A DNA stretch of 64,000 nucleotides, taken from contig OZ024741.1 of the NCBI GenBank assembly GCA_964016885.1, forward strand, positions 135,718,001 through 135,782,000, written 5' to 3'. A model generated the notes under the pieces. That model was not told where the DNA came from and made no database searches. It saw only the letters and a list, made by a program, of their open reading frames with translations. Made by a program: the position numbers and the translations under genes. The stretch comes from Eledone cirrhosa. Its lineage: Eukaryota. Positions 8,105-63,555 of this stretch are shown here, one piece after another (position 1 is the first letter of the stretch; every line of letters starts with the position of its first letter).

Positions 8105-8445
8105 ATATGAAGAAATTTAGTCCTTCATCAGTGATCTTCCAACCTTCATTGGTATTTCCTCGCTTTAAATACCATATACCTCCGGTTGGTGCGAGCAACG
8201 GCTAAATAAAGTCGTTGGGACACGTAAATAAGGGGAACGAGTGAGACTGTAAACAATCAAAGATGGTAATGCAACGAATTTACGTGTGCCAACGACTTTC
8301 TTTAACCGTTGCTCGCACCAACCGGAGGTATATGGTCTTTAAAGCGATGAAATACCAATGAAGGTTGGAATATCACTGATGAAGGACTAAATTTCTTCAT
8401 ATGTAACCCATTTGCAACCACGCAGCACGCCATGTTTTCATATAA
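8105..8445 (+). mobile_element. Fold-back element in (TA)n: ~125 bp inverted arms (8105-8229 / 8277-8403) plus ~40 bp tail; probably Penelope-like pLTR derived
   Basis: Arms are reverse complements with a few mismatches and are flanked by (TA)n. CTGATGA is present but no complete hammerhead was found. Confidence 0.6.
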
Positions 8446-8487
8446 ATATATATATATATATATATATATATATATATATATAGAAAT

Positions 8488-10220
8488 TATAGAAATAACA
8501 TGAATCAAAGTTCAGTTTAAATCATTTATATGCTAAAAATTGTTTCCTCCAAACCGAGGTTTGGATCCTTCGGAGCAATTATTTAGTGATCTTTTACATA
8601 CTTGACCTCCTTTTCAACACAAGTGACAATAGTGACACCCTCATAGTACCTTTTACCCTAGAGATATCCCCATGTACTTCTACTTTTGGTATATTGGCCT
8701 TAAATTACTTGGACTACATTGCACCAATATATAATTAATGTAAACTGTAAGCACTGAATTGGTTGTGCTAACATTGTCCTGTGCATGGAGTGCCACCATT
8801 GGATAAATAGAATATTAAGTAATTAATTTATGAAAAGAGCTATATAATCTATATTCTGAGTGCAATGAATTATGTACAGGTCATATATGAGTTATAGGTA
8901 TATGTATGGCTTGATGGCCAGATTAGTGTCTTTGTATGAGAAAATTGATCTCTGGACCACCCTGGTGATATTTAACTTTGCCATGCATTCAGACATACAA
9001 TAACCCAGAGCTTACCAGGAGTCATATATAGTAATAAGACCCTGCCAGGTTCTGCGTGTAGACTACACTTACAAAGATCATTGATTTGGAGGTCTGACTC
9101 TTCATGTGGAATGTTCGGTTGTGGCACTCCATGATAGAAGGTAATCATCCTAATATGAACACATTTAGTACTTCTTGATAGACTACACTGTAATTTATAG
9201 ATAAGATACTTAAATTTAGAAATTGTTTATAACCTTATATGATAGGGACTCATTTGAAACACCATTAATGTACTTTAGGATAATAAATTTAACTATGGAA
9301 ATCAGCTAGTTACCTCCCCTTACGCATTAACTCCCCTTAATCACACACACACTTCCGGAATATAATACGATGTCAACTCTCACAACAAAAACAACCTGCT
9401 CTATAGAATCGAATAGATAACGACAAACTATGATCTATAACATGGTTCACCAGGCACCCAATGTTGAATCATCGTGGATGGTGTGATGGACATGTAGTCT
9501 ATAAATTGCGTTTCCTGGATTGTGTGAGTGGTGGTGTGTGCGAGGACAGTGGTGCTGTTTTGCTTCTCATTTGTAATATTTTTGATATTTTTGATATTTT
9601 TGGTGTTTCTCTACACACGGGCTTCTATACCGTACAGGTGTGTGTGAAAAATGCTTTAACAGTACAGCCCCCATGATGCTATTGATTGCCTGCTTTGACT
9701 GCTTGTTTTACATGTAACAATCAGCCGCACTATAATCTTGTATAAATAGGACACGCGTGCATGCCACGCGTGAGACTGTTACATACACTGGCTACTCCAA
9801 ACTTTCCTCTTGCTTTATCTTCATAAACTGCCAATGTTTTATTTTTATTTTAATTTTTATTTTAACTTTAATTTATTCCTTTAATATGACTGTAATCTTT
9901 GTATGTAAATTGCCATGCTATATTATTATGATAGATGTCAACCCACTGTGGGTCAATATATACATATGTTTCTATATGTCTCTTGTGTTGAAAAGGAGGT
10001 CAAGTATGTAAAAAAATCACTAAATAATTGCTCCGATGAATCAAAACCTCGGTTTGGAGGAAACAATTGTAAGCAAATAAATGATTTAAACTGAACTTTG
10101 ATTCATGTAATTTCTATATAACTGCTCTGTAAAACAACTGATGTTGTTACATTGAGCTATTTATCTTACTGGTAATAAGATAGTAATGAATTACTGTCTT
10201 TCACTATTTAGGGTTTAAAA
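8488..10220 (+). mobile_element. Penelope-like element with inverted ~140 bp terminal repeats (8488-8628 / 9977-10119), ~1.35 kb interior and 3' tail
   Basis: Inverted arms contain a hammerhead motif; an unpaired tail follows the right arm; (TA)n on both sides. Interior ORF 9461 has a weak GIY-YIG-like 'HVVYKLRFLDC'. Confidence 0.65.
10028..10076 (+). ncRNA. Type I hammerhead ribozyme variant (core CCGAUGA)
   Basis: TTGCT-CCGATGA-[tcaaaacc tc ggtttgga]-g-GAAA-CAATTG-TA-AGCAA. Stem I is TTGCT/AGCAA; stem III is palindromic. In the mirror arm stem II is perfect (tccaaacc/ggtttgga). Confidence 0.6.
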
Positions 10221-10299
10221 TATATATAACTATAAAAGGTTTTAGTATATACATAAACATAAATAGTATATATATATATATATATATATATATATATAT

Positions 10300-60548: not shown

Positions 60549-61311
60549 ATATATATATATATATTTATATATATATATATATATATATATATATATATAT
60601 ATATATATCGTGTGTATATGTTTTGGGTAACTTGATGTAAAAATAAGGGTAATTTTTGGATTTTGTGGGTTTATTGAAAATGTCTTTTTCTATCTTACCT
60701 CTATTTTTAAGATTTTGATATGCAAAACTTTGAAAATAAGTGGAAATAGTTACAACTAAAACAAAATTTCTCAAGACATGTGATTACATGCTGTGGTTGT
60801 CTGCAAAATCATATAGGACAGGCAGGAATTTCATCATGCAAAATAATGACCATGCATTGCTAACAAATCCATGCTGAAAACACATGACAAATCCCCTTAC
60901 ACACACACACATCGCAACGTGTGAAAGATTAGACATATCCACTTTCAAAATTTTCAAACTCAGCACATGCTAACATTCTTTCACTCAACAGAGAATAAAG
61001 AAAAAAACAATTCATTAACAATACAAACAACAATTAAATATTTAATTGTTCTCCATTAGACACTAAATAGTGACCCATATCTATATAAATCTTCTCTCTC
61101 TCTCTCTCTCTCTCTCTCTCTCTCTCTCTCTCTCTCTCTCTCTCTCTCTCTATCTATCTATCTATCTATCTATCTATCTCCCCCCCCTCTCTCTATATAT
61201 ATATTGGGTAATCAAGTATGAAATTTGTAGAAATTTGTTTTCTTTCTACACATTCCTACACATTTCATATTTGACGACCCTATATATATATATGTATATA
61301 TATATATATAT

Positions 61312-62502
61312 CTAAGGCGGGTAAAATTCCCGAGATCCATGGACGAGTTCTCTCCAGCGGACTCTATCCCTCATTATCGCTGCCATGTCCTGCGTCTCCA
61401 TCAGACCAGTGTCTGTCCTTAGGGCATCAACATACGTTAACCTTGGTCTTCCTCTTCTAGTGTGTCCATGTAGGGGCTCCCAAAGGAGCACTGAGTGCAA
61501 TGTCAACTCTGGATGTCGGTGAGCATGTGCAGTTAACCTCAGTCTCCTCTGTGTCACTTTTGAACTGACTTTTGGGATGCTCCCATACAGATCTGAGTTT
61601 ATCATCCTCAGTATATACTGATTAATGTTCAGAGCCATCCTCAGCATTCTCGTGTAGCACCCATCCACCATCTGAGTGAGTTTCTTGGTCAGTGTCCAAG
61701 TCTCAGACCCATACAGCAGCACAGACTCCACTACAGCTACGAAGGTCCGACTTCCACACCGATCTCAAGCTGTGGCACGCAGCCCAAGCCTTGCTCTTCC
61801 TCTCAACCACATCATCGAGTCAGATCCAGGGAACGGGGCCCGAGGATAGAAAGAGGAAATGGCTAGACCATTTTAGGACCCTACTAGGAGAGCCACCCTC
61901 CACAGCCCAGAGCACTGGGGAGTTCAGGCGGCTGTTTGAGGAACTGGATGTTGAGACAGAGCCCTTCACCAGAGAGAAGCTTCAGAGAGCCAAGAAGAGG
62001 ATCAATGAGGGCAAGGCTCATGGAAAAGATGGAGTGGCATCAGAGGTGATGAAGAGGTGTGATTTTGATGATATCATCTTGAGGTTCTGTAACGGGGCAC
62101 TGGAGAAAAGAGTTGCCCCGAATCAGTGGAGGATCAGTAACATCGTCCCAGTGCCAAAGAAGGGAGATCTCTCTAACACCAACAACTACCGGGGGATCTC
62201 ACTGACGTCACTTTTGGCAAAGACCCTCACAGGATGATTCTTAACAGGATCCAGCCTGAGATGGAGAAGAAGCTCAGGGACAACCAGAACGGCTTCAGAG
62301 AGGGTAGATCAACTACCAGTCACATCCTGATGCTGAGGAGGATATTAGAGGGAGCTAGAGCAAAGTGCCTTCCTGCGGTCATGGTTTTCATTGACTTTAG
62401 GAAGGCCTTTGATTCTGTGGACCGTTACTGCCTGATGAAGATATATATATATATTCCCAATTGGTTGAGGACTTCCTGTATTTGGGAGCAAAGATTGGGA
62501 AT
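61312..62502 (-). mobile_element. RTE-clade LINE insertion with an inverted 5' segment
   Basis: Minus 61312-~61818: KSKAWAAC..ESVLLYGSETW...RGRPRLTY. Plus ~61820-62502: NYRGISLTS, QNGFREGRST, FIDFRKAFDSV, then VEDFLYLG. Confidence 0.9.
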
Positions 62503-63344
62503 ATATATATATATGTATATATATATATATATATATACACACACACATGTATATATATATATATAAAGACTTAAGCAAAACTCTCTAATTGGGGAGTCAA
62601 TTAACTTTATATATATATATATATATGTGTGTGTGTGTGTGTGTGTGAGAGAGAGAGAGAGAGGGAGAGAGAGAGAGAGAGAGAAAGAGAGAGAAAGAGT
62701 ATGACGTATGTCTTATAAAACATTCACGTTAGAGAAGATGAACGAGAAGTAATGACAACATACAGATGATAAAGATCATGAAGATGATGACACTACTTTT
62801 CTATATCCTCGAATATTACTTCTACAAGAATAGTTTAATTTTGGTTTTCTGTGCTAACACGGTTGATTATAGGTTGAGTTATATGTCATATGACATTTTT
62901 TTTACAAAATCTTCGCAATATATAGAGGTCGTCTGCTGTAAAATAGATAAATGTGAGCACTACTTTGTTCATAAAAAAATTGTCGGTATTATTTAAAATA
63001 TATATTATATATTATATATATTTATATATTTGATATATATATATATAAATATATATATATATCAAATATATAAATATATATAATATATAATATATATTTT
63101 AAAAAATACCGACATTTTAATAGAGTCCGTCAAGCTGCCGATTATTGAGTCGGGTAGGATCGATATAGATCGAACCTTGAGCTGATCAGTGGCGAAACGC
63201 GCGTCACCTATCAATAAATGCAATGAAGGAATAATCAATCGTCCTTTTTATCCTTTCAATATATATAAATATATATATATTACTCTTTTACCTGTTCCAG
63301 CCATCCGGCTGAGGCCATGCTGGGGCAGGGCCCTTGATATATCT

Positions 63345-63555
63345 ATACATATAAGTTTATCCCGGGTTCGATCGGGGGTATCCACAGTAAGTAAGGTACT
63401 CAATACATAGCAGAGTATAATTATTTAATATAGAAATGGCTCCTACAGGATTAGAACTGTTTCATTCGGAAGAAATCATAATGGAAGCAGACTTCCTGAT
63501 GATTTGTCCTGAATGAAACAGTTCTAGACCTGTAGAAGCCATTTCTATATTAAAT
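63345..63555. mobile_element. Fold-back element of the 41502 family in opposite orientation; hammerhead at 63492-63538 (+)
   Basis: CTTC-CTGATGA-ttt gtcct gaat-GAAA-CAG ttctagac CTG-TA-GAAG; the tail is the reverse complement of 41620-41685. Confidence 0.8.

Follow-up and report, generated by a model that had tools for sequence, protein, structure and literature searches.

A 64,000-nucleotide (nt) stretch of the Eledone cirrhosa genome (the window; G000:C2:135718001-135782000 in a 3.0-Gb assembly) holds a series of short fold-back elements embedded in (TA)n tracts, each with two inverted arms and an unpaired tail that follows only one of them. The positions at which these arms begin and end point to a specific mode of assembly, in which a capped sense RNA would be reverse transcribed twice, independently, and the two products joined head to head to give the fold-back, a reading to which we assign a probability of roughly 0.7 on the basis of genomic copies. 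The elements themselves are almost certainly the 3' ends, comprising pseudo-long terminal repeat (pLTR) and tail, of Penelope-like elements (PLEs), as judged from the frames to which other copies extend.

Arms in the window were located by a seed-based inverted-repeat finder and the elements were sorted into 11 families (A-K), in keeping with a sequence-only reading of this DNA that had proposed several. Each family was searched genome-wide, yielding first-look candidates for A (2541), B (2340), C (1192), D (2822), E (1309), F (1398), G (187), H (2667), I (3220), J (476) and K (203), and for each family 40 candidates were scored and 20-30 excised for study. Arm ends were read off chained BLAST hits against a single reference copy for each family, and copies not picked through their own family query are termed unselected. 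An unbiased genome sample comprised 60 evenly spaced 10-kb stretches (599,800 bases).

Fixed ends of the arms

The outer end of the arm that lacks a tail is fixed in nine of the 11 families, with few copies for C and E. Relative to the tail end, it lies at -77 in 56/65 copies of D, at -83 in 19/27 of F, at -81 in 19/25 of K, at -98 in 13/16 of H and at -41 in 8/13 of A, while 6/10 copies of I share one site, J uses two (16/33 and 11/33) and G mainly one (15/32). This tail-less site is a TA-rich spot just 5' of a small RCUCY...GAGY hairpin that is present in nine of the 11 reference copies, and the motif was found in 13/29 random elements as opposed to 41/2000 random segments.

The upstream ends are similarly restricted. 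Among unselected copies, the end lies at most 5 nt from an initiator-like A in 22/32 (D), 11/12 (G), 9/17 (J), 7/9 (K) and 4/10 (F), and a YYA initiator-like motif occurs inside each of these five peaks. Exactly on the A there are 38 ends, and the counts upstream of it fall through 14, 6 and 4 to 1. The K and F peaks cannot be attributed to search bias because they lie far past the query, and those of D, G and J persist in copies found by chance. The base that follows is G at 22 of the 38 ends on the A compared with 21/144 nearby ends (p 2e-7), a difference that remains when bases explained by the other arm or by the TA run are excluded (15/20 versus 14/91) and in unselected copies (7/9 versus 8/63); the positions of the A were recorded before the G count was made. 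An extra G of this kind is a mark of the copied cap in L1 insertions (PMC11702581). A 3' splice site at the stop was considered and rejected: the sequence would allow one in D, G and J though not in K, and the joints show no upstream exon.

Arm lengths, junctions and rival explanations

In 103 unselected fold-backs the tail-less arm is the longer in 42, the shorter in 16 and equal in 45 (p 9e-4), and the two arms do not overlap at all in 21. Over 217 junctions, 105 show overlap, 28 are blunt, 73 carry 1-15 extra bases and 11 carry more. The overlapping junctions, the equal-arm copies and the common source of the arms would all suit snap-back self-priming, in which a cDNA folds over and is extended along itself as far as the tail base, or self-primes on an antisense template as proposed for rotifer Penelopes, and PMC3846280 does interpret junction palindromes as self-priming. 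However, snap-back alone is insufficient, because a cDNA primed at the tail could not serve as template for an inverted arm that exceeds its own length, and one lacking the tail has no means of supplying it; the copies with a longer inverted arm and those without overlap both stand against it, as does the occurrence of the extra G on tail-less and tail-bearing arms alike, on the sense side of the initiator-like A. We therefore regard snap-back as an unlikely general source of the elements, one that may nonetheless make part of the equal-arm class, whereas two primings on a sense RNA explain all arm classes.

A different alternative holds that a few palindromic units act as master elements that are transcribed whole and copied in the manner of short interspersed nuclear elements (SINEs). 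Centres and lengths do recur within D, G, J and K, and every arm that reaches the A spans the putative cap site to the tail, but the junction letters vary from copy to copy, indicating that the hairpin is made anew at each insertion and rendering master hairpins very unlikely. Use of a single arm as template would fit the two-priming model.

The relationship between the arms was assessed over 186 elements, in which divergence is 3.7% between the arms of one element versus 7.7% between elements. Private changes are unshared in 222 cases versus 30 common to both arms, and their density in the arms (0.0066) matches that in the single-copy tail (0.0064 per site). Thus, both arms come from one source and have aged separately since. 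Strong arm-to-arm conversion was not found. These figures bear on the proposal that 5'-truncated insertions became palindromic later, by replication template switching or by repair at (TA)n cruciforms, with arm conversion maintaining the likeness. While the location of all elements in self-complementary (TA)n and the 30 common changes are consistent with such a history, a tail-less end fixed to the base within a family, the preponderance of unshared changes at tail-like density, and left arms that often have sequence the right arm lacks make it highly improbable.

A proposed two-priming model

Under the two-priming model, transcription by RNA polymerase II would begin within the pLTR, at the initiator-like A that lies 137-275 nt ahead of the tail end, and the GIY-YIG/reverse transcriptase (RT) protein would nick both strands of a (TA)n tract, a step with in vitro precedent. 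In the genomic copies, one arm begins at the tail end and its partner at the fixed, TA-rich base of the tail hairpin, and both terminate on the same A or short of it, frequently with the extra G; the RT would have run off the capped 5' end and copied the cap. An early stop of the tail-primed copy would leave arms without overlap, and displacement of the other copy would give the palindrome, with the two ends joined through microhomology or short filler. Longer RNAs from upstream would give copies that bear an open reading frame (ORF) with the same inverted arm.

Several points weigh against this model. Both the cap site and transcription from it are features that we infer from the genome. The initiator A was chosen after the peak of each family had been seen and YYANWY occurs at 150/4312 reference positions, so the motif alone is weak; many ends lie 1-21 nt short of the A, and 7 of the 22 G's are supplied by the opposite arm. 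The cap test rests on D, F, G, J and K; E yielded no exact end, and no clear upstream-end peak appears in B and I. Since the ends are BLAST ends on one reference, diverged subfamilies or nested insertions can mimic a longer left arm, and the equal-length class fits snap-back as well. Finally, no empty site was seen, the reads from another sample not reaching unique flanks.

Penelope-like origin and ORF-less monomers

The frames upstream of the arms support one of the two options in the sequence-only reading, that the elements are pLTR-only PLE insertions. Eight of the 11 families (B, C, D, F, G, H, J and K) extend upstream, in other genomic copies, into GIY-YIG frames, and RT motifs also lie upstream of the families of 8488 (B), 41502 (G), 44066 (H) and 59946 (K). 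The join of tail to frame is present in several copies each for B, H (L363-L365, with 4.2 kb in common), J (L067, L069, L081 and L087) and F (about 10 of 25 loci), and in a single long copy each for C (L369), D (L137) and K (L357); that of G (L371) spans a long microsatellite-rich stretch. For B, a 637-amino-acid (aa) frame in L362 carries YRDD followed by YIGST, placing RT together with a C-terminal GIY-YIG in one frame. In that frame (L362:6206-8116), an asparagine-rich stretch separates RT from endonuclease, as in the rotifer Penelopes of PMC3846280.

The long-copy frames carry YxDD, the GIY-YIG motif, a CxCx5C linker, CxxC and CxH, and DKT. The linker occurs in eight of nine long copies from seven families (that of F was seen in L415), CxxCxxE in eight of nine and CxH in all nine, around a conserved E and N, and DKT replaces DKG in the B and G copies, the only two to extend to this position. 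These predicted frames thereby carry the features of Hydra-clade PLEs as given by Craig et al. 2021 (PMC8557442), an account that includes GIY-YIG, these motifs, hammerheads and (TA)n. Further marks of the clade are an N-terminal RWK motif and the absence of CCHH, and no full-length 5' end was recovered among the long copies. Pfam matched GIY-YIG weakly in two of six pieces, below its cut-off, and its search of long-copy pieces missed the RT; Atlas neighbours carry RVT_1 and GIY-YIG, and the only named protein relative is from Argonauta hians. A GIY-YIG search of the genome gave 10,596 candidates in all, mostly of another PLE clade, and in those loci the window families are only neighbours. 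A second abundant PLE group (L031-L060) has a CxxxxCxxC linker, UUGAAAA/UUGAUAA hammerhead-like cores, an ACCGGU stem III and (TA)n ends.

At the 5' side of ORF-bearing copies (L371, L372, L373 and L374) the same inverted arm without tail is found, indicating that the fold-backs are the short end of a continuum rather than a separate class; in L374 this arm runs from -139 to -77, exactly as in the short D hairpin.

Families A and I differ in having their own tail ahead of the upstream part, in 25/30 and 6/9 copies, respectively. With monomers of 643-651 nt (A) and 704-708 nt (I) and a longest ATG frame of 52-67 aa, they are ORF-less head-to-tail units, like retrozymes, so that the retrozyme-like parasites suggested in the sequence-only reading have a counterpart in these two families. 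The window element of I is a partial tandem plus an inverted arm. For E, one weak ORF-link match was found in eight loci. Two GIY-YIG frames were set aside as links: the one near A in L029 is separated from it by a TA run, and L168, with a frame near G, is a short fold-back flanked by TA. Elsewhere, L370:2372-9924 holds a head-to-tail series of seven units, each a 1.1-kb 3' piece of G, with TA-rich sequence at every junction, and L376:4479-6329 is a glycine-rich 617-aa frame unlike a transposon protein.

Candidate hammerhead ribozymes

Hammerheads were called with our own descriptor, which tolerates known core variants. A whole type I outline is present in seven of the 13 listed window elements (8488, 41135, 41502, 44066, 45421, 46411 and 63345), a half in four (8105, 18585, 18948 and 32805) and, by eye, a nearly whole one in 21030, whereas 59946 has none, its arms stopping short of the hammerhead of family K. 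The palindromic stems III named in the sequence-only reading (CAATTG, CGATCG and CGCGCG) are all present. Outlines also occur in 7/11 family reference copies, plus the window copies of G and I. The elements can be called a ribozyme-bearing system only tentatively, because many cores are variant or halved: only four of the seven whole outlines have the canonical CUGAnGA core, cores of B are mostly CCGAAGA (14/22), and 18 copies of I include CUGAUGA (5), UUGAUAA (2), UUGAUGA (6) and others (5). Given the mostly CCGAAGA cores of B and the mixture in I, activity is doubtful for several families. A long copy of D has a U3-A8 core of the type described in PMC4209133, which already mentions minimal hammerhead pairs on opposite strands, 100-700 bp apart.

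Rfam, the check proposed for these putative ribozymes, gave weak support: its best window match, Hammerhead_1 at 45858-45942 in family I, scores 20.6 bits against a gathering score of 34. There was no hammerhead among the matches listed (150 of 198) in the search of the whole window, and no useful one in a search of 41350-41700. Folding did not discriminate: in the three elements scored of six tried, pairing of the hammerhead stems was about 0 when the whole fold-back was folded and 0-0.3 for a single arm.

Two simple relations between hammerhead and arm were ruled out. Arms do not end at the cleavage site, as the tail-less ends lie 10-55 nt past it, and a stop at stem I is no general rule, since in D the arms stop within stem II, and in K and F they do so 70-87 nt upstream of the core. 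We infer that the hammerhead is a passenger of the pLTR that sets neither end of the element.

Fold-back elements of the window

The window is microsatellite-rich, with no intact gene among its frames of at least 120 aa. The finder detected inverted arms at 12 of the 13 sites listed in the sequence-only reading, confirming that the fold-backs are real, and at one unlisted site near 30087-30539; the arms of the thirteenth (32805) are short, decayed and below the reach of the finder, and this element belongs to the 18948 family (Table 1). A few elements depart from the proposed layout: the tail of 8488 is about 155 nt, where those of A, D, F, H, J and K are 41-98 nt, and on one side 21030 ends in (CA)n and 63345 in (TATC)n. 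A 155-nt query from the J element matches nine other copies at 100%.

Table 1. Fold-back elements and related pieces in the window (window positions; the number beside a family letter is the listed site).
Feature	Positions	Strand	Arms	Description
A (8105), fold-back	8106..8446	+	8105-8201/8306-8402 (finder)	inverted tail-less arm 8106-8278 (longer arm), then direct arm; 5' half of hammerhead core only; 41-nt tail
B (8488)	8489..10260	+	8498-8623/9982-10108 (finder)	tail-less inverted arm 8489-8632, then 1.6 kb 3' untranslated region; hammerhead outline 10028-10076, core CCGAUGA, stem III CAAUUG; tail hairpin 10124-10157
Solo pLTR piece	10302..10480	-		whole canonical hammerhead outline; without inverted arm
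Second solo pLTR piece, same family as 10302..10480	15040..15253	-		whole canonical hammerhead outline
C (18585), fold-back	18570..18805	-	18679-18705/18744-18770	tail at left; 3' half hammerhead, stem III CGAUCG
D (18948), fold-back	18952..19141	+	18949-19002/19011-19064 (finder)	77-nt tail; 3' half hammerhead; left arm stops at initiator-like A carrying extra G
E (21030), fold-back, old	21032..21330	+	21067-21087/21195-21215	nearly whole hammerhead from 21201 (by eye)
Unlisted fold-back	29850..30539	-	30087-30268/30351-30539	tail hairpin 29919-29953
D (32805), fold-back, decayed	32809..32971	+		3' half hammerhead
F (41135), fold-back, young	41136..41475	-	41222-41342/41357-41477 (finder)	83-nt tail at left; whole canonical hammerhead outline in both arms, 41368-41432 (+) and 41331-41267 (-)
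G (41502), fold-back	41507..41691	+	41502-41557/41559-41614 (finder)	tail hairpin 41627-41645; centre is initiator-like site immediately 5' of CUGAUGA core
H (44066), fold-back	44070..44446	+	44064-44199/44213-44348 (finder)	98-nt tail; hammerhead outline 44207-44293, non-canonical core, stem III CGCGCG
I (45421)	45424..46382	-	45561-45734/46205-46378 (finder)	ORF-less ~704-nt monomer; whole canonical hammerhead 45858-45942; second tail piece 46162-46207; tail-less inverted arm 46205-46382
J (46411), fold-back, young	46413..46634	+	46424-46474/46479-46529	hammerhead outline with CAGAAGA core; 86-nt tail
K (59946), fold-back	59948..60128	-	60049-60077/60092-60120	81-nt tail at left
Lone tail-less piece of H	63114..63258	+		ends at fixed tail-less site
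G (63345), fold-back, older	63352..63555	-	63423-63467/63511-63555	whole hammerhead outline in tail-less arm

Different families are stacked inside one TA tract at 18570-19141, 41136-41691, 45424-46634 and many other loci, as if every insertion leaves a target for the next. The segment at 18340-18490, enclosed by TA runs, comes from another family and shows CUGAAGA, stem II and GAAAC at 18382; a tail-only fragment akin to family F, likewise between TA runs, occupies 18840-18936. The unlisted fold-back belongs to a nest of inverted repeats at 29066-30598, with outer arms 29066-29097/30567-30598, a small palindrome at 29203-29323 and inverted pieces of a dispersed repeat at 29360-29889. A dispersed short repeat, SINE-like by look, has at least eight pieces in the window (25368-25664, 29383-29519, 37112-37423, 39190-39383, 49490-50250, 51502-51716, 55502-55698 and 59053-59192). 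Broken frames at 13672-14453 and 61312-62566 have the look of reverse transcriptases of long interspersed nuclear elements.

Abundance and association with (TA)n

The genome sample contains 129 inverted pairs with arms of at least 30 nt, and in 46 of these a TA run lies at most 12 nt from an outer end, as opposed to 563 of 16,788 random positions per side (3.4%). TA is likewise present at the inverted-arm end in 207/240 copies that have an inverted arm versus the corresponding place in 50/212 that lack it. The siting of fold-backs at TA is therefore not chance, and the predicted enrichment of (TA)n flanks is borne out. The tail end abuts TA in 38/40 random copies, and 18/40 random tail-bearing copies have an inverted arm.

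The asymmetric layout was found in 29 distinct elements in the 600 kb sample, or one per 21 kb, which by simple extrapolation gives about 145,000 fold-backs in the genome; 15 of the 29 belong to the window families. The identical automatic rule finds nine elements in the 64-kb window, about three times the genome mean, so that the density of one per 5 kb put forward earlier is adequate for the window but not for the genome as a whole.

Among raw short reads taken from a different sample, 5562 and 2164 carry a junction between the tail-less site and (TA)n, and opposite-strand joints occur too, indicating that the fold-back pattern is not a product of assembly, although no record spans a window element plus its flanks. 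These joints, and arms that differ by several percent, tell against assembly artefacts, the first of three further options considered together that we find barely credible. The second, miniature inverted-repeat (MITE) or Foldback DNA transposons, does not fit: the elements are asymmetric, with the unpaired tail always at one end, and their arms are retrotransposon 3' ends that continue into RT/GIY-YIG frames. For the third, microRNA genes, Rfam microRNA models do fall over several hairpins, all below their gathering scores. Pieces of families F, G, H and J also occur in two other organisms (runs X5 and X6), and these families are therefore common to relatives.

Comparison with known systems

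Earlier publications already describe one-sided tails, truncated copies in inverted orientation, insertion into (TA)n and hammerheads in the pLTR, and the origin of the inverted pLTRs and one-sided tails of PLEs is named as open in PMC8557442 and PMC3846280. The window families share with the Hydra-clade PLEs of PMC8557442 the C-terminal GIY-YIG, CxCx5C, CxxC and CxH around a conserved E and N, DKT and hammerheads, as well as (TA)n insertion, the inverted 5'-truncated copy and the one-sided tail. They differ in tails of 41-155 nt rather than 30-40, in some elements longer than 4 kb, in a copy number of order 100,000, mostly as pLTR-length fold-backs, and in many variant cores.

The Penelopes of Adineta vaga and Drosophila virilis (PMC3846280, PMC2377424) similarly combine an inverted pLTR beside a direct one, an optional tail, solo pLTRs and an initiator-like TCACT in the pLTR, and transcription from within the pLTR has been demonstrated for Penelope (PMC2377424). 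These papers explain the palindrome by self-priming on an antisense template and attribute the solo pLTRs to recombination or deletion, whereas the present data favour a capped sense RNA and two primings. In vitro, the PAc protein of Anolis Poseidon cuts and extends both strands from two RT starts that bound the tail, with a dispensable hammerhead (Frangieh et al. 2024, PMC11167929). The two start sites and the AT-rich target are paralleled here, in another clade and in genomic copies only; that paper offers neither an explanation of the inverted arm nor a report of cap run-off. L1 twin priming (PMC11702581) offers a further parallel, with two primers from two target ends, an inverted 5' part, a microhomology joint and the extra G at the capped end, yet the second L1 primer acts at variable places and the segments barely overlap, whereas here the site is fixed and the arms usually overlap fully. 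Non-LTR retrozymes (bioRxiv 10.64898/2026.07.22.740005) resemble A and I, which are likewise ORF-less head-to-tail monomers of 650-700 nt, with a whole type I hammerhead in I; in contrast to them, A has only half a core, the arrays are partial tandems, and both families have the PLE tail, inverted arm and (TA)n target.

A family-specific fixed arm start, and the frequent stop at an initiator-like A with an extra G in five well-sampled families, were not found in print; the cap-site run-off pattern was not found in a Penelope/PLE literature whose coverage lacks most subscription journals (older Penelope papers included) and supplements.

Implications

If the run-off reading is true, a long-unexplained step of Penelope insertion becomes testable, as the genome holds of the order of 100,000 minimal products, each with four ends that can be read to the base. 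For young families these products predict exact cap sites and RT start sites, and ORF-less monomers with the same insertion signature would provide mechanistic support for animal retrozymes riding on PLE proteins. Octopods are known for heavy RNA editing, and a hairpin every 21 kb is a large potential source of double-stranded RNA. More tentatively, and at clearly less than even odds, pairs of strong-stop-like cDNAs running from the internal tail site to the cap might be the main insertion product in this genome, with arms that contain cap site and tail serving as templates; pLTR-only units and retrozyme monomers could then spread in a SINE-like manner, giving rise to about 140,000 long perfect hairpins as potential input to RNA editing and small-RNA pathways.

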